Source: Clostridia bacterium
GTDB taxonomy: Bacteria; Bacillota; Clostridia; CAKSNL01; HGM11501
Length of the DNA stretch: 19,813 nucleotides
Reading direction: 5' to 3'
Assembly (NCBI GenBank): GCA_045545475.1
Contig: JAZQAZ010000043.1
Coordinates: 1 to 19,813, forward strand
Under the pieces are notes generated by a model. The model made no database searches. It was not told where the DNA came from and was given only the letters and a program-made list of their open reading frames with translations. The first letter of the stretch is position 1, and each line of letters starts with the position of its first letter. The position numbers were made by a program, and so were the translations under genes. Below are positions 187-5,758 of this stretch, piece after piece.

Positions 187-2385
187 TTATGCATCTTTTC
201 TTAAATCGTTGTTGGATAACTCCGTGACAGGAACCAGATTGTGATGAAGCCTTGCCAGGTCGTTACGTTTTTCCGAGTAGGAATAGCCTTCTGTACGCAT
301 GTATGCATTCCATCTTACATGCTCAATCTTGCCAATTTCAACTTTATCTTGCAAGGTCATATCTTCCCATGCTTTATCGGTGATTTCGGATTTATATTTG
401 AGATTTTTTCTTAAACGTTTATGAATAGCTTTTGCAATGGAAGAGCGATAATTGTATTCAAATCTGAAACTTTCTGTCGCTTTCTTTTTCTCATTTTTCT
501 CGATCTCGGTCCACAGTTTTTCGATTTCGGGATCGGTAATAAGATTATTGAACTTCGCATAAACCAGCTTTTCCCATTTGTCAATTCTTTCCGTTGCAGT
601 ATTCTTAAGTTTAAGAAATTCTTCTTCGGTTACACCGTTGTTTACTGCCTTTTCCTCTTTTATAGTCATAAAGGAAAAATCGCTTTTGGATTCAGGGAAT
701 TTTAACGCCTTTTTGCCGTCTTTGACAAGAAGAGCGAAATATATATCCCATGATTCCTTGAGGCCTTCAGATGCTATAAATTCATTCCATTCATCTTCCA
801 TGGTATCTTCTGCAAAAGAAACTTTTTTATAGTCGACACAGTAGTCGGTGTGGCTGGCAAATCCGTCTGCAACCAAGTCTGAATTTATTACGGTTTCTTC
901 AGAATAGAAGGTGTCAAGGTCGCCTGTCATCAAAATGTTATAAGGCTGTTTTTTGTAATTTGCGGCACCAAGCTTTTCTTTGCCTGAATTTTCTATATTA
1001 TCCCAGGTTATGCCAAGGCTTTTTCTTACATTTGAATCGTATATAATTGTCTCAATGTCGGGTTTTCTGCCGTCTCCCGAATAGTTGATACGCTCACATA
1101 TAGTCCTTATTTCGGTGGAGGCACTTAAATTGGCTTCATCATTTCCGAGACATACAAAAATGTAGGTGGCATCGTCTATTTTTGAAAGCAATTCCTCGAA
1201 TTGCGGAACGGCAACATCAACTCCCGAATGAATGGTTATTTCATAATAAGGCTCCCCGAAGATGAATTTTTTGTTGTATTTCTCACTCATGAGTTCGGGG
1301 CACATGGCTTTTAATTTTTCTTCGGCTTTTTCGTCTGCATCAAAAGCGTTGATTTTGAGCTTATAATCTTCAAGCTGACAAAACCATGTGAGTGCTTTAA
1401 GCATTTCCTGTCCGTATTTGCCGAGACCTATAATGACTGCGGAAATCACGTCTTTTTCGCCGTCGGTTTTACGTGCTCTTTTAAAGAGATTGATGCCGTT
1501 TTTATCAAGATTGTGATAGATGAGAGACTGAACATCGTTCACCCTAGTTAAACTCATGTTTTTAACATTGTTTTTTGCCAGAATAAGTTCTGTTCTGATA
1601 TCGTCTGAGAAAATCCAAAGGCCGACACCTTCATAATCGTAGTTTTCTATTATGCTTTCAGCATGGCGTATCTTTTCAGACTCGTCATCGGAAATTAAAT
1701 AAAAATTTACTTTTCGGCAGGAGTTGGCACGCTTGAAGTGAACAGATTCCAAGTCCTTTCGGAATAAAATAGCACCAATTTCCTTCGCTTCCTCAATTAA
1801 GTCAAGGCTAAGTTCTTCTTTTTTGTCTATAATATCGGTAAAGACAAAAAGACTTCTAGGAATGAATTTTAAAAACGGATTGCTTTTTTTATGTAATGAT
1901 TTTGCAAGAGCCAGGGATTTTTCGTTCAATTCCGAAAAAACATGTGTTTCCGTCCAGAAGCAGCCTTTGTATTTAAGATATGAAAAAAAGTTTTTGAAAA
2001 ATGTAAGGATGAAGCCGAAGGTGAGAAGAGGGGCAACTGCATAAAGAACAGCACCGAAGGAAATATAAAGTTCCTCTATTTCGGCAGGATAATTTTCCGT
2101 TGCAATAAACTCGGTAAATTCACCGTCCAAACCGAAAATTCTGAATGAATGTTGAAAAGAGGATAAAATTGCAGGAAACACGTCAAGGCCCTTCAGCAAA
2201 TACAGCGGAATAAAGTATGCAAAGGCAGAAATGAATATTCCGACAAAGGAAACTTTGCCGGGAGTGAAAATCGTGGTTCTTTTATTGTGATTGAAAAATT
2301 TAAGTGCCAACAGTGCCAGTAAGGTTAAAATCAGAAAGTATAAAAATACACCCCACCTGCTGTTTAAAAAACTACACCAATCCAT
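187..2385 (-). CDS. Membrane protein: N-terminal TM/pore-like region, RCK/TrkA-N-like Rossmann domain(s) and C-terminal bacterial RyR (ryanodine receptor repeat) domain; 732 aa
   Basis: Hydrophobic helices in the first ~130 aa; AVIIGLGKYG Rossmann motif; C-terminal EHVRWNAYMRTEGYSY...RNDLARLHHNLVPVTEL...RKD, typical of the RyR domain. Start moved from 2418 to ATG 2385 because GGAGG precedes it. Confidence 0.75.
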   Translation of the reverse strand: MDWCSFLNSRWGVFLYFLILTLLALLALKFFNHNKRTTIFTPGKVSFVGIFISAFAYFIPLYLLKGLDVFPAILSSFQHSFRIFGLDGEFTEFIATENYPAEIEELYISFGAVLYAVAPLLTFGFILTFFKNFFSYLKYKGCFWTETHVFSELNEKSLALAKSLHKKSNPFLKFIPRSLFVFTDIIDKKEELSLDLIEEAKEIGAILFRKDLESVHFKRANSCRKVNFYLISDDESEKIRHAESIIENYDYEGVGLWIFSDDIRTELILAKNNVKNMSLTRVNDVQSLIYHNLDKNGINLFKRARKTDGEKDVISAVIIGLGKYGQEMLKALTWFCQLEDYKLKINAFDADEKAEEKLKAMCPELMSEKYNKKFIFGEPYYEITIHSGVDVAVPQFEELLSKIDDATYIFVCLGNDEANLSASTEIRTICERINYSGDGRKPDIETIIYDSNVRKSLGITWDNIENSGKEKLGAANYKKQPYNILMTGDLDTFYSEETVINSDLVADGFASHTDYCVDYKKVSFAEDTMEDEWNEFIASEGLKESWDIYFALLVKDGKKALKFPESKSDFSFMTIKEEKAVNNGVTEEEFLKLKNTATERIDKWEKLVYAKFNNLITDPEIEKLWTEIEKNEKKKATESFRFEYNYRSSIAKAIHKRLRKNLKYKSEITDKAWEDMTLQDKVEIGKIEHVRWNAYMRTEGYSYSEKRNDLARLHHNLVPVTELSNNDLRKDA

Positions 2386-2424
2386 AAAAATTCCCTCCGT
2401 GAAATACCAAATATTCATATGGAC

Positions 2425-2526: not shown

Positions 2527-2751
2527 TCAGTCTAGTGGTTTGTCGTCGGATATAACCCCACGCTCTTTGAACAGAAGGGTAATACACCAGATGCCTGCAA
2601 GTCCCACAAGGGAATAAATAATTCTGCTGAGTAAAGCCATCTGGCCACCGAAAAGAGTGGCTACAAGATCGACTCCGAAAAGACCGATAGAACCCCAGTT
2701 TACGGCACCTACAATAACCAGCACCAATGCAATTATGTCCGCTATCATCAT
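2527..2751 (-). CDS. DUF378 family small membrane protein (YuzA-like), 74 aa
   Basis: Signature LVIVGAVNWG.IGLFG.DLVA.LFG...SRIIYSLVGLAG. AAGGAGTG RBS favours ATG at 2751 over GTG at 2760. Confidence 0.9.
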   Translation of the reverse strand: MMIADIIALVLVIVGAVNWGSIGLFGVDLVATLFGGQMALLSRIIYSLVGLAGIWCITLLFKERGVISDDKPLD

Positions 2752-2773
2752 ATTAATCACTCCTTACAGAGTT

Positions 2774-2804: not shown

Positions 2805-4184
2805 TTATACATTAAAAATTATTTGAGCAACATTGAAATAAATTAAAAGGGAAAGTGAATCGACGATTGTAGTAATGAAGGGAGAGGCCATAATCGCAGG
2901 GTCAAAACCCAGTTTCTTAGCACCTATGGGAAGGAGACAGCCTATGGATTTTGCGAAAATTACCGTGATGAAAAGGCTGATACTTACGGCAAGAGCCATA
3001 TCAATAACCTGATTAAGGGCAAATTCGCCTCCGCCGAAATAATATTTCATAATGAAAATTCTTATAAAATTAACTAATGAAAGGGCAATTCCGCAAAGCA
3101 GGGAAATTCTTATTTCCTTAAACCAGGCTTTAAGAACATCAATTCCCTTAAGTTCGCCGAGAGCAAGACAGCGGATAATTAGAATTGAGGTCTGAGAACC
3201 GCAGTTACCGCCTGTGTTCATCAGCATGGGGATAAAGCCTATGAGGAATCCCAGGGACGACAGCTTGGCCTCAAAAGAATCGATAATTGCTCCTGTGATA
3301 GCCGCAGAAAGCATAAGTATCATAAGCCAGGGGATGCGGTTTGCAAAATGACGGAATACACCTGTTTTAAGGTAGGAATCCTCGGAGGGTGTAACCGCTG
3401 CCATAATTTCAAAGTCTTCCGTTACTTCTTCTTCAATAACTGTTACAGCATCGTCAACCGTGATGATACCGACAATTCTGTTTTCCGTATCAACCACGGG
3501 CATGGCAAGCAGACCGTACTTTGTAAACATTGCGGCAACTTCTTCCTTGTCATCGCCGGTGTGACAAAACACAACTCTTTCGTCCATAATGTCGCCGATT
3601 AAGGTATCTTCGCTTGCAAGGATGATGTCTTTAAGTGACAGTGTACCAAGCAAAACTCTGTCACGCTCTGTTACATAAAAGGAGGAAATATCCTCCACCG
3701 AATCGCCGAAACGTCTTATGTGCACAAGTGCACCCTTAACGGTCATTTCCTTTTTGAGGTCAATAAATTCGGTGTTCATTAAGCTTCCCGCCGAATCCTC
3801 CGGATAGCGGAGAAGCTGATTTATTGCCTTGCGGGTTTCGGAGTCGGTGTGCTTTAGGATTCTGCTCACCATATTGGCGGGCATTTCTTCAAGCAAATCC
3901 ACCGTGTCGTCGACAAAAAGCTCGTTTAAAATATTGTGAAGCTCCCTGTCGGTGATTGCGGAAATTACACTTTCCTGTAAATCCGAATCCATGGAGGCGA
4001 AAACCTCCGCTGCCGGCTCCTTTGGGATAATGCGGAAAATTTTAACCGCATCTTCTTCCTTCAATTCTGCGAGAATTTCTGCAATATCAACCTCGTTATA
4101 CTCTTTTAAAATTTCCTTTATTTCCGAAATTTTTCTTTCCGCAAGAAGAGAGGACAAGGTTTCAATGATTTCTGTTTCAAACAT
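2805..4184 (-). CDS. mgtE: Magnesium transporter MgtE, 459 aa
   Basis: MgtE N domain, YPEDSAGSLM, CBS pair (GIITVDD), RIPWL, GGNCGSQ, DPAIMASPFITTIVD. Start ATG 4184 follows GAAAGGCGG. Confidence 0.97.
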   Translation of the reverse strand: MFETEIIETLSSLLAERKISEIKEILKEYNEVDIAEILAELKEEDAVKIFRIIPKEPAAEVFASMDSDLQESVISAITDRELHNILNELFVDDTVDLLEEMPANMVSRILKHTDSETRKAINQLLRYPEDSAGSLMNTEFIDLKKEMTVKGALVHIRRFGDSVEDISSFYVTERDRVLLGTLSLKDIILASEDTLIGDIMDERVVFCHTGDDKEEVAAMFTKYGLLAMPVVDTENRIVGIITVDDAVTVIEEEVTEDFEIMAAVTPSEDSYLKTGVFRHFANRIPWLMILMLSAAITGAIIDSFEAKLSSLGFLIGFIPMLMNTGGNCGSQTSILIIRCLALGELKGIDVLKAWFKEIRISLLCGIALSLVNFIRIFIMKYYFGGGEFALNQVIDMALAVSISLFITVIFAKSIGCLLPIGAKKLGFDPAIMASPFITTIVDSLSLLIYFNVAQIIFNV

Positions 4185-4211
4185 AAAAAAACCGCCTTTC
4201 CGCACAGGCGA
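4185..4211 (-). terminator. Leader hairpin plus U7 overlapping the mgtE RBS (attenuator terminator or RBS sequestrator)
   Basis: On the - strand: TCGCCT-GTGCGGAA-AGGCGG-TTTTTTT-ATG. The 3' arm is the mgtE Shine-Dalgarno. Confidence 0.6.
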
Positions 4212-4236
4212 AAAAGCGTAACGAAAGACAGGCAGC

Positions 4237-4317
4237 CTAAAATCTGCCGTTTCCGGACGCTAGCCGACCGTACGATATTTTGATAAAAATGCATAATCGA
4301 CTACTGTCCGCGTCCAT
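4237..4317 (-). CDS. Putative mgtE leader peptide (uORF), 26 aa MDADSSRLCIFIKISYGRLASGNGRF
   Basis: GGAGGTG RBS (4323-4329) lies 5 nt before ATG 4317, just downstream of the promoter. TAG is at 4237-4239. Not in the ORF track. Confidence 0.7.
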   Translation of the reverse strand: MDADSSRLCIFIKISYGRLASGNGRF

Positions 4318-4345
4318 GAAAACACCTCCGTCTTTTATTAATTTC

Positions 4346-4374
4346 ATTATAGCACTCATGATTTGATTAGTCAA
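4346..4374 (-). promoter_or_regulatory. Sigma-A promoter of the uORF-mgtE transcript
   Basis: On the - strand: TTGACT-17 nt-TATAAT with extended -10 (TGcTATAAT). Confidence 0.85.
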
Positions 4375-4419
4375 TAATGATATTTTACACAAAAATAGCG
4401 GAAAATATGCTTGTTTTAC

Positions 4420-4448
4420 TTGACTAAAACGCTATTTTAATATAAAAT
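4420..4448 (+). promoter_or_regulatory. Sigma-A promoter of the obgE operon
   Basis: TTGACT-17 nt-TAAAAT upstream of the GAGAGGAG RBS. Confidence 0.7.
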
Positions 4449-4486
4449 AATATAGATATAGTATATTTTTGAGAGGAGCGCTTAAC

Positions 4487-5758
4487 GTGTTCGCAGATAA
4501 GGCGGAAATTTTAATAAAAGCAGGTAACGGCGGAAACGGCCTTGTGTCTTTCAGACGTGAAATTTATGTGCCTGCCGGCGGACCCGACGGCGGTGACGGC
4601 GGCAAGGGCGGCGACATTGTTTTTGTAATTGACCCCGAGGTTAATACTTTGGCGGATTTCAAATTTAAAAGAAAATATTTTGCAGAAAACGGTGAGGACG
4701 GAAGGGCAAAAAAGTGTTTCGGTAAAAGCGGTGCGGATCTTTTAATCGGCGTTCCCGAAGGAACACTCATCCGTGATAAGGAAACCGGAAAAGTGCTTGC
4801 CGATATGACGGGCGAAAATAAGAGAGTTGTTGTGGCAAAGGGCGGTAACGGAGGATTCGGAAATCAGCATTTTGCAACCCCCGTGCGCCAGGCACCTCAG
4901 TTTGCGAAAAGCGGAATAAAAACCAAGGAACAAACCGTAACGTTGGAACTTAAAATGATAGCAGACGTTGGCCTTGTGGGCTTCCCGAATGTGGGAAAGA
5001 GCACAATTTTATCCTGCGTCACCAAAGCACAGCCTAAAATTGCCAACTATCACTTTACCACACTTCAGCCCAATTTAGGAGTTGTGTTCATGGGCGAGGG
5101 AAGAAGCTTTGTGCTGGCCGACATTCCCGGTATTATCGAGGGTGCATCAGAAGGTCTCGGTCTGGGTCACGACTTTTTACGCCACATTGAAAGAACGAGA
5201 ATAATAATTCACGTTGTGGACGTGTCGGGAAGCGAAGGCAGAAATCCCATCGAGGATTTTGAAAAGATAAACGAAGAACTTTTGGCATATAATTCAAATC
5301 TTGCCGCACTTCCTCAGGTTGTGGCGGCCAATAAATCGGATATTGTGTATGACGAGGAAATGAAGGATGAGTTTCTTAACTACCTGAAGGAGCGTGACAT
5401 TCCCTGCTTCTTAATTTCTGCGGCAACGCATCAGGGATTAACGCCGCTTCTTAACTATGTGGAAAGTCAGCTTAAAACTCTGCCTCCCGTACCTGTGTTT
5501 GAATCGGAAATTGCCTACGATCTTGAAACGGAGACCTCCGATGAGTTTGAAATTACTTTTGAGAACGGAGTATATTTTGTGGACGGTCCCTTTGTTGAAA
5601 GGCTGGTTGGCAGCGTAAACTTTGAAAACGACGAATCCGTGGCATATTTCCAGAGAACCCTCCGTAAGCGTGGCATAATTGATGCTTTGGTTGAAGCAGG
5701 ATGCCGTGAGGGTGACACGGTTTGCGTAATTGATATTGAATTTGAGTATAAGGACTGA
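4487..5758 (+). CDS. obgE: GTPase ObgE/CgtA, 423 aa
   Basis: Gly-rich Obg fold (GGPDGGDGGKGG), G1 GFPNVGKS, YHFTT, DIPG, NKSD, and C-terminal OCT domain. GTG start at 4487 follows GAGAGGAG. Confidence 0.98.
   Translation: MFADKAEILIKAGNGGNGLVSFRREIYVPAGGPDGGDGGKGGDIVFVIDPEVNTLADFKFKRKYFAENGEDGRAKKCFGKSGADLLIGVPEGTLIRDKETGKVLADMTGENKRVVVAKGGNGGFGNQHFATPVRQAPQFAKSGIKTKEQTVTLELKMIADVGLVGFPNVGKSTILSCVTKAQPKIANYHFTTLQPNLGVVFMGEGRSFVLADIPGIIEGASEGLGLGHDFLRHIERTRIIIHVVDVSGSEGRNPIEDFEKINEELLAYNSNLAALPQVVAANKSDIVYDEEMKDEFLNYLKERDIPCFLISAATHQGLTPLLNYVESQLKTLPPVPVFESEIAYDLETETSDEFEITFENGVYFVDGPFVERLVGSVNFENDESVAYFQRTLRKRGIIDALVEAGCREGDTVCVIDIEFEYKD

Follow-up and report, generated by a model that had tools for sequence, protein, structure and literature searches.

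How is the gene of the Mg2+ channel MgtE controlled in a gut bacterium of the class Clostridia that has no recognisable Mg2+ riboswitch in front of it? In Gram-positive bacteria, the control of mgtE is usually ascribed to the M-box riboswitch. To our knowledge, Mg2+ sensing by a ribosome engaged on a leader peptide is established only for the enterobacterial mgtA, mgtB/mgtCBR and corA. The mgtE gene considered here lies on the minus strand of a 19,813-nt stretch of DNA (contig JAZQAZ010000043.1 of assembly GCA_045545475.1; hereafter the window, taken at its full length), and an initial annotation of its 5' leader proposed that a leader-peptide Mg2+ attenuator stands there in place of the M-box. 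The leader does hold a real, conserved regulatory upstream open reading frame (uORF) followed by a terminator, most likely with an MgtQ/MgtL-like mode of action. We put at roughly 0.6 the probability that it is a ribosome-mediated attenuator of the MgtL/MgtQ kind that also sequesters the mgtE Shine-Dalgarno (SD) sequence, with Mg2+ as its presumed signal.

The elements on which this reading relies are the following, in the direction of transcription.

4369 to 4374, minus strand: -35 hexamer TTGACT, with a 17-nt spacer to the -10 hexamer; same promoter position in the genus leaders
4346 to 4354, minus strand: extended -10 element TGcTATAAT, the -10 hexamer itself at 4351-4346
4323 to 4329, minus strand: uORF SD GGAGGTG, 5 nt upstream of the ATG at 4317-4315
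4291 to 4329, minus strand: conserved box (SD, spacer and codons 1-9), delimited from the genus alignment
4237 to 4317, minus strand: leader ORF MDADSSRLCIFIKISYGRLASGNGRF, 26 codons followed by the stop codon TAG at 4239-4237
4310 to 4315, minus strand: 5' strand of helix P2, GGACGC, spanning the G of the ATG, the whole of codon 2 and the first two positions of codon 3
4297 to 4299, minus strand: in-frame Arg codon CGA, codon 7 of the uORF, rare by codon usage and seen in class-wide uORFs
4255 to 4260, minus strand: 3' strand of helix P2, GCGTCC (region 2), pairing with 4310-4315 in the minimum free energy (MFE) and consensus folds
4231 to 4248, minus strand: hairpin P3, GGCAG/CTGCC, whose loop contains the TAG that ends the uORF (MFE fold)
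4220 to 4230, minus strand: pyrimidine tract TGTCTTTCGTT, which can pair with the uORF SD region (P1, MFE fold)
4193 to 4218, minus strand: intrinsic terminator with an 11-bp stem and a 4-nt loop, -15.7 kcal/mol
4194 to 4200, minus strand: mgtE SD GGAAAGG, within the terminator 3' arm, an arm conserved in the genus
4185 to 4191, minus strand: U7 tract, abutting the mgtE ATG at 4184-4182
2805 to 4184, minus strand: mgtE, 459 amino acids, Pfam domains MgtE_N, CBS and MgtE

Thus the promoter, the GGAGGTG motif, the 26-codon uORF and the hairpin with its U7 tract and embedded mgtE SD all lie where the initial annotation had placed them. The promoter matches the consensus at 11/12 positions and carries the extended-10 TG, and its predicted transcription start, as read from the sequence, falls about 10 nt upstream of the perfect uORF SD. 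The statement that the uORF has the better ribosome-binding site also holds on inspection, with 7 nt complementary to the antiSD sequence against GGAAAGG for mgtE. The uORF ends 52 nt from mgtE, and a single G separates the terminator stem from the U7 tract. For the 171-nt leader, the folding energy is -55.6 kcal/mol, compared with -42.5 +/- 3.7 kcal/mol for 200 shuffled sequences (z = -3.5), every one of which is less stable. The P1 pairing is weak and has no control comparison; a pyrimidine-rich tract is found at the same place in all genus leaders. The peptide begins with M-D-A-D-S-S-R-L-C, with Asp at positions 2 and 4, and several of its codons are rare in the genome (GCG, 15% of Ala codons; AGT, 11% of Ser codons; CGA, 5% of Arg codons in long ORFs).

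Is this arrangement conserved? A blastn search of 40 relatives places the leader upstream of mgtE in 10 of the 11 further species of the genus and finds it in no other of these relatives; the eleventh species, G001, is not assessable because its mgtE starts at a contig end. The counts below therefore refer to 11 assessable species, including that of the window. It should be noted that the order defined by GTDB holds only 14 genomes, and that its two other genera have no mgtE match at E<=1e-20. Within the genus, the sequence GGAGGTGTTT is kept in 11/11 leaders. The uORF SD GGAGGTG is invariant in 11/11, the start codon is ATG in 10 and GTG in 1, and the N-terminus MDAD[SG]SRLC, with Asp2 and Asp4, is kept in 11/11; beyond it, the peptide diverges completely between lineages. 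The frame stays open over 23-28 codons in all 11. In the 9 leaders for which the distance was measured, its stop codon lies 50-58 nt upstream of the mgtE ATG; on inspection, this codon falls in or at a small hairpin across genus lineages. Helix P2 (GGACGC:GCGTCC) is present both in the MFE fold and in the consensus fold of the 11 leaders, with 7 pairs kept in 10-11 of the 11 sequences. The terminator is likewise part of the genus consensus fold, with double-sided changes at 2/8 consensus pairs.

Beyond the genus, a scan of 185,579 species genomes with the exact box as a pattern gave 13 matches, 10 in genus relatives and 3 chance matches out of context. A codon-degenerate version of the pattern gave 27 matches in metagenome contigs, of which 24 are due to chance and 3 are real, with the box unchanged; this added one new variant (L087) and zero synonymous variants. 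Among the species genomes scanned, the exact box is thus confined to the genus apart from the chance matches, and the question becomes whether the uORF has less literal relatives in other Clostridia.

To address this, 150 Clostridia genomes were sampled. The mgtE gene was located in 104/150. Outside the genus there were 108 mgtE matches, and upstream DNA was fetched for 91 of them; the 17 rows excluded comprise 14 matches at E>1e-100, one match near a contig end and, in G130 and G042, the second copy of a tandem pair. A uORF was counted when an SD preceded an NTG start followed by GA at codon 2, with a length of 8-50 codons and a position <=260 nt upstream of mgtE. Such a uORF, with Asp or Glu at codon 2, was found in 48/91 leaders, compared with 0/91 in their reverse complements and a mean of 2.8 (maximum 7) in 50 shuffles. 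The comparative uORF test proposed by the initial annotation is therefore positive in a modified form, SD-NTG-GA[N]. Asp or Glu occupies codon 2 in 48/59 leaders with any SD-preceded uORF, and Asn or Ala takes this position in the similar uORFs of three more leaders. Counted by family labels, the 48 leaders are spread over 23 GTDB families. Their uORFs are preceded by SD motifs of the GGAGG/GGTGA type.

Several features of these uORFs are of the coding type. Codon 2 is GAC, GAT, GAA or GAG. For 45/48 rows (3 doubtful starts dropped), the information at the three codon positions amounts to 0.45, 0.43 and 0.18 bits, the third position being the lowest. Synonymous variation is seen (GCA/GCC/GCG/GCT, CCT/CCG/CCC/CCA, TTA/CTG/TTG, and in Gly codons too), and the conserved uORF blocks are spaced by whole codons. 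Three groups of N-termini can be recognised. The first reads MDAGG[SN]S..K[PY]. The second, M-D-x-x-x-(x)-[SG]-R-[LW]-[CSW], is that of the window, whose peptide has relatives in other families such as MDAGGNGRLC, MDAYPGRLC and MDVGDYSRLS. The third is MgtL-like, M-[DE]-x-[DG]-P-L-P, some members reading M-D-x-D-P-L-P. Judging from these sequences, the uORF of the window is one genus-level branch of a class-wide family of mgtE uORFs and is very probably translated.

The closest mgtE homologues outside the genus (L099, L101, L102, L103, L104 and L109; 51-56% identity) show an SD followed by 5-8 T and then the start codon, which indicates that the design in which the terminator arm is also the SD recurs in other orders. 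In 4/6 of these leaders, an acidic-start uORF was not detected. Tandem mgtE pairs were also observed in three Clostridia genomes (G130:C20:24575-27327, G069:C21:30739-33905 and G042:C3:750293-752962).

What is the place of the M-box in this class? It occurs in 27/150 sampled genomes and adjoins 13/91 mgtE leaders; the view that it is the usual control of mgtE in Firmicutes, on which the initial annotation drew, thus does not apply here. The M-box model (RF00380, threshold 44 bits) has no match in the window, none in the whole 95%-complete genome, and none in those members of the class sample that come from the genus (4 other genomes) or from its sister genus (one genome, G013). More generally, Rfam gives no match at the gathering threshold over the whole window. 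Even at E<=10, the region 4100-4500 yields only seven matches, six of them to families of small nucleolar RNAs or small RNAs (sRNAs) and one to a ribosomal-protein leader, all far under their gathering scores. Likewise, 0 matches at E<=0.01 were obtained for 20 uORF-bearing leaders from other families. A search against Rfam had been recommended as a way of excluding the M-box and other known motifs, and none of them matched. The wording "in place of an M-box" is too strong: among the 13 mgtE leaders with an adjacent M-box, 6 (leaders such as L146, L154, L162 and L164) contain both, the uORF lying between the aptamer and mgtE, so that the two devices are not alternatives. In 4 of these 6 leaders (G092, G031, G060 and G020), the uORF starts with M-D-[SP]-[GD]-P-L-P, 58-100 nt after the aptamer. 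Such leaders would be tandem arrangements of a riboswitch and a leader peptide. Finally, neither CorA nor CNNM was found in the 95%-complete genome of the window, which leaves mgtE as the only Mg2+ route detected.

The closest known systems are enterobacterial. In MgtL (MEPDPT), Glu2 and Asp4 are reported to be required for an early destabilisation of the ribosome, enhanced at low Mg2+. In MgtQ, Asp2 and Glu5 slow the ribosome on the uORF and favour the 2:3 pairing (PMC8092293). N-terminal acidic residues are described in this literature as destabilising or pausing early ribosomes, more so at low Mg2+, and as controlling mgtA through MgtL and mgtB through MgtQ by alternative 1:2, 2:3 and 3:4 pairings. 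As with MgtL, a short uORF with acidic residues at positions 2 and 4 precedes the gene of a Mg2+ transporter here; in mgtA, early destabilisation or pausing at low Mg2+ selects between mRNA folds and premature termination, and the same can be proposed for mgtE. The analogy with MgtL drawn by the initial annotation is therefore apt, given the critical Glu2/Asp4 and Asp2/Glu5 pairs and the existence of M-D-x-D-P-L-P uORFs; its emphasis on Asp4 does not carry over to the family as a whole. There are also clear differences. The EPDP prolines of MgtL have no counterpart, since no proline is found in the peptide of the window or in any genus homologue; in other clostridial subfamilies proline does occur (e.g. 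MDSDPLP, MDAYPGRLC). Termination depends on Rho in mgtA, whereas an intrinsic hairpin and U7 are used here. The gene controlled encodes a P-type ATPase in one case and a channel in the other, and the host here belongs to the Clostridium class. Lastly, according to the fold models, absence of translation should mean OFF for mgtE. In the enterobacterial case, by contrast, abolishing mgtL translation derepresses mgtA.

The logic proposed here is that of MgtQ-mgtB of Salmonella. In that system (PMC8092293), the uORF overlaps region 1 of a 1:2/2:3/3:4 array whose 3:4 hairpin sequesters the ribosome-binding site of the transporter gene. Here too, the 5' codons of the uORF form a region 1 paired to a region 2, and the mgtE SD is contained in hairpin 3:4. 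MgtQ differs by its 8 codons, its intergenic position within an operon and its action on translation only (same source), whereas the present uORF has 26 codons, lies in a 5' leader, and is followed by a hairpin 3:4 that is also an intrinsic terminator.

From these parallels, we infer translation, the direction of the switch and the Mg2+ signal as follows. On the transcript issued from the promoter, ribosomes would load at the perfect SD and translate the 26-codon leader ORF. Region 1 (the first nine codons) would pair with a region 2 inside the ORF, made up of GCGUCC and the adjoining nucleotides, and regions 3:4, the 11-bp terminator with U7, would both end transcription and bury the mgtE SD. 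During smooth translation up to the stop codon in P3, the terminator would form and mgtE would be off; the stop codon stands 20-24 nt ahead of the terminator stem, as counted from the sequences, so that a terminating ribosome should leave the terminator free. Where P1 and P2 hide the start region of the uORF and so prevent initiation, the terminator would form, and mgtE would be off as well. The ON state would arise when the ribosome lingers on the acidic, rare-codon start, as expected at low Mg2+ by comparison with MgtL and MgtQ. Region 1 would then be held, region 2 would engage the 5' arm of the terminator, and read-through would leave the mgtE SD free. By analogy with these systems, the attenuator is probably responsive to Mg2+.

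The proposal that the position of the ribosome chooses the fold was examined by masking a ribosome footprint along the uORF in 12 leaders. With no ribosome, the terminator is predicted to form in 12/12. With a ribosome on codons 1-6, the probability of the terminator drops in 7/12 (G003, G002, G004, a metagenome variant, G005, G008 and their metagenome twin), and an antiterminator is predicted in these. In 6/12 leaders, the complementarity between region 2 and the 5' arm of the terminator beats that of shuffled sequences (p<0.05). The switch is thus predicted in part of the genus, and not for the window's own leader.

Indeed, a number of observations weigh against an MgtL/MgtQ-like attenuator and have to be set beside those in its favour. 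In G000, the genome of the window, as well as in G010, G009, G007 and G011, no drop is predicted, and the terminator keeps a probability of 0.87-1.00 at every ribosome position. The 2:3 complementarity is at chance in 6/12 leaders, G000 among them. At the level of the class, pairing of the uORF start is also at chance (26/48 leaders versus 15-29 in controls), and so is the pairing counted for the mgtE SD (40/48 versus 24-38 in controls, with 37/43 in leaders devoid of the uORF). The scan for uORFs accepted only ATG, GTG or TTG followed by a GA codon 2, so that the start codon and the acidic codon 2 are partly built into the family. Asp4 is not conserved class-wide, Gly being commoner at position 4. 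The peptide of the window has just two acidic residues and no proline, and according to the EttA paper, di-acidic residues alone are insufficient. Openness of the frame is weak evidence for coding in the genus: the other two frames contain only 0-2 stops over the same stretch, and we therefore rejected frame openness as proof of coding. The single metatranscriptome run (word share 0.12) gave contigs of low likeness over parts of mgtE and obg, with the leader uncovered, and thus speaks neither way.

A further difficulty comes from the type of selection acting on the box. Conservation of the codon type had been anticipated within the genus; instead, it is of the nucleotide type. The 38-nt box from the SD to codon 9 is invariant in the genus, synonymous sites included, and the codons for D2, A3, D4, S6 and R7 are unchanging across genus uORFs. 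In mgtE itself, compared over 10 species, only 22 of the 241 columns in which the residue never changes also keep the codon (D, 3/19; A, 1/19; S, 1/13; R, 1/12), and third positions at identical residues are 43-54% identical between lineages. From this codon retention, the probability of the box codons being invariant under selection on the peptide only is roughly 1e-5, which means that selection also acts on the RNA or DNA sequence as such. The P2 pairing accounts for some of this constraint: a change of codon 5 from AGT to GGC accompanies an altered P2 partner. On the other hand, the box remains the same even where the 3' strand of P2 shifts its register, so that pairing and coding together are insufficient to explain the invariance. 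Judged from the alignments, direct recognition of the box at the RNA or DNA level is conceivable, and this too counts against the attenuator as sole explanation.

This raises the possibility that the leader is an unclassified riboswitch sensing a ligand or an ion, possibly Mg2+, in which the box together with P1, P2 and P3 would be the sensor, and the SD-AUG and the frame would play a secondary role or belong only to the expression platform. The invariant synonymous sites of the box, next to mgtE synonymous sites that are near saturation, fit such a view, as do the good folding of the leader with its three-way arrangement before the terminator, the codon-5 change that tracks its P2 partner, and the retention of CGA at the nucleotide level across families. 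Against it, Rfam gives no match. Conservation is concentrated in a single uninterrupted block, opening with a perfect SD and a start codon, rather than in scattered junction nucleotides. The class pattern is codon-like, with least conserved third positions, synonymous Pro, Leu, Ala and Gly changes and whole-codon insertions or deletions; the acidic codon 2 is encoded by four triplets instead of one fixed triplet; and the drift of the P2 3' partner would leave the box unfixed by pairing alone. On balance, a riboswitch appears unlikely.

A variant of the attenuator retains the ribosome as sensor and displaces the cause of the pause. Between codons 2 and 15 of the class-wide uORFs, 25/42 Arg codons are CGA, compared with 7/127 at mgtE starts, and CGA is in frame in 25/40 of its occurrences in the class-wide leaders. 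The tRNA-Arg anticodons found in the genome are ACG, CCG, CCT and TCT; tRNA-Arg(UCG) was not found among the 35 tRNAs detected, a set that is incomplete. With no TCG anticodon found, CGA would be readable only by the anticodon-ACG tRNA, presumably as ICG through an inosine-adenosine wobble. Taken together, the preference for CGA and the lack of a detected UCG tRNA make a codon-specific pause a live possibility. The sensor would then be a programmed slow codon, CGA at about codon 7-8, and not the acidic peptide alone: decoding by the weak wobble would slow further as free Mg2+ falls, the ribosome would park over region 1, and mgtE would be turned on. We regard this decoding sensor as rather improbable; if true, a codon-level, decoding-based Mg2+ sensor would be common to the class-wide uORF family.

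The invariance of the box could alternatively reflect a binding site for a factor acting in trans that would govern termination or initiation at the uORF. This could be an sRNA, a protein that binds RNA, or a repressor that binds the DNA as a roadblock at +17 to +55. The contiguous 38 nt kept at the nucleotide level in the genus would suit such a site, and inspection of the leader reveals GGAC-GC-GGAC direct repeats, an imperfect inverted repeat ATGGAC-N10-GTCGAT and multiple GGA motifs. However, the box occurs as a single copy in the genome of the window, with no extra copies, hence no regulon of similar sites; no regulator gene is found among the neighbours of mgtE (obg, yhbY, nadD-HD and the DUF378 gene); and the class-wide family retains features of the peptide type rather than of the nucleotide type. 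We consider a trans-acting factor a long shot.

That the unit is an independent small gene, either for a functional 26-residue peptide (e.g. membrane- or transporter-modulating) or for an sRNA, with mgtE expressed by unregulated read-through, is very improbable: although the unit is self-complete (promoter, strong SD, ORF, terminator) and small peptides modulating Mg2+ systems exist, such a role being proposed for Rv1805A in the Mycobacterium tuberculosis paper (PMC12810186), conservation is confined to the first 9 residues. The C-terminal two thirds differ across genus lineages and the class, as would not be expected of a folded or membrane peptide. Moreover, the mgtE SD is contained in the terminator and the U-tract runs right up to the mgtE start, so that mgtE is left with no other promoter or free SD and is mechanistically tied to the unit.

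Other described leaders resemble the present one in part. Like the M-box (ykoK, RF00380), it stands before mgtE, has a similar length, is followed by an intrinsic terminator and presumably responds to Mg2+; it differs in that the covariance model has no match in the window or the genome. Classical ribosome-mediated attenuators, of the trp type (transcription) and of the erm type (translation), share a leader ORF, a terminator or SD-sequestering hairpin, and a region 1 inside the ORF that pairs with region 2. Here, unlike in those systems, there is no run of cognate codons and no link with antibiotic resistance, and it is the extreme N-terminus that is conserved. The Rv1805A uORF2 of M. tuberculosis, controlled by an M-box, is also a small conserved uORF of a Mg2+-related leader, and its N-terminal part is likewise conserved. 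According to PMC12810186, however, it is specific to mycobacteria; rather than acting as a sensor in front of mgtE, it is itself the product regulated by a translational M-box with Rho termination. The Thioalkalivibrio mgtE motif, presented as a strong riboswitch candidate in PMC11109978, is a genus-restricted structured leader before mgtE with an SD and AUG in a stem. As described, it involves the SD and AUG of the main ORF itself, has no uORF and belongs to Gammaproteobacteria. The nearest published cases are MgtL, MgtQ and CorL in enterobacteria, the mycobacterial M-box uORF and the Thioalkalivibrio motif. In a literature search that left supplementary files outside its scope, no uORF preceding mgtE was found described in Clostridia or other Firmicutes, in agreement with the initial annotation, which knew of none in Clostridia.

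Around mgtE, the genes obg, yhbY and nadD-HD are transcribed divergently, and a DUF378 gene lies downstream. The latter encodes a 77-residue membrane protein (2527-2760, minus strand), begins 44 nt 3' of mgtE and may share its transcript. Further 3', a 743-codon ORF (187-2418, minus strand) has no Pfam match at E<=0.001. In the sister genus, genome G012 contains a 443-residue CNNM/CorC-type gene (L066:239-1570) whose start, GTG-GAC-GCA-GAC (MDADPL) behind GGAGGAG, resembles that of the uORF of the window. This gene was matched in the class pattern scan. An origin of the uORF from CNNM/CorC genes, or a motif shared with them, was considered, and the resemblance is taken as probably due to chance, since 120 homologues mostly start with M-S-S-D-P-I-W-P, D-P being a trait of that family; the genus CNNM homologues start with MDPASS, and a reversed control pattern also matched once in the class pattern scan. 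The IRD preprint reports N-terminal acidic control of Escherichia coli ybeX/corC.

Most of the mgtE genes sampled in Clostridia thus have no M-box, and about half have an acidic-start uORF, either instead of an M-box or behind it. Such leaders are currently unannotated and are missed by Rfam, which is of direct concern for genome annotation. If these uORFs sense Mg2+, the dominant control of Mg2+ uptake in a major class of gut bacteria would be translational and not riboswitch-based. In that case, the probing of ribosome stability by acidic N-termini would be either ancient or repeatedly invented, and the conserved rare CGA codon would give a testable link between decoding and ion homeostasis.

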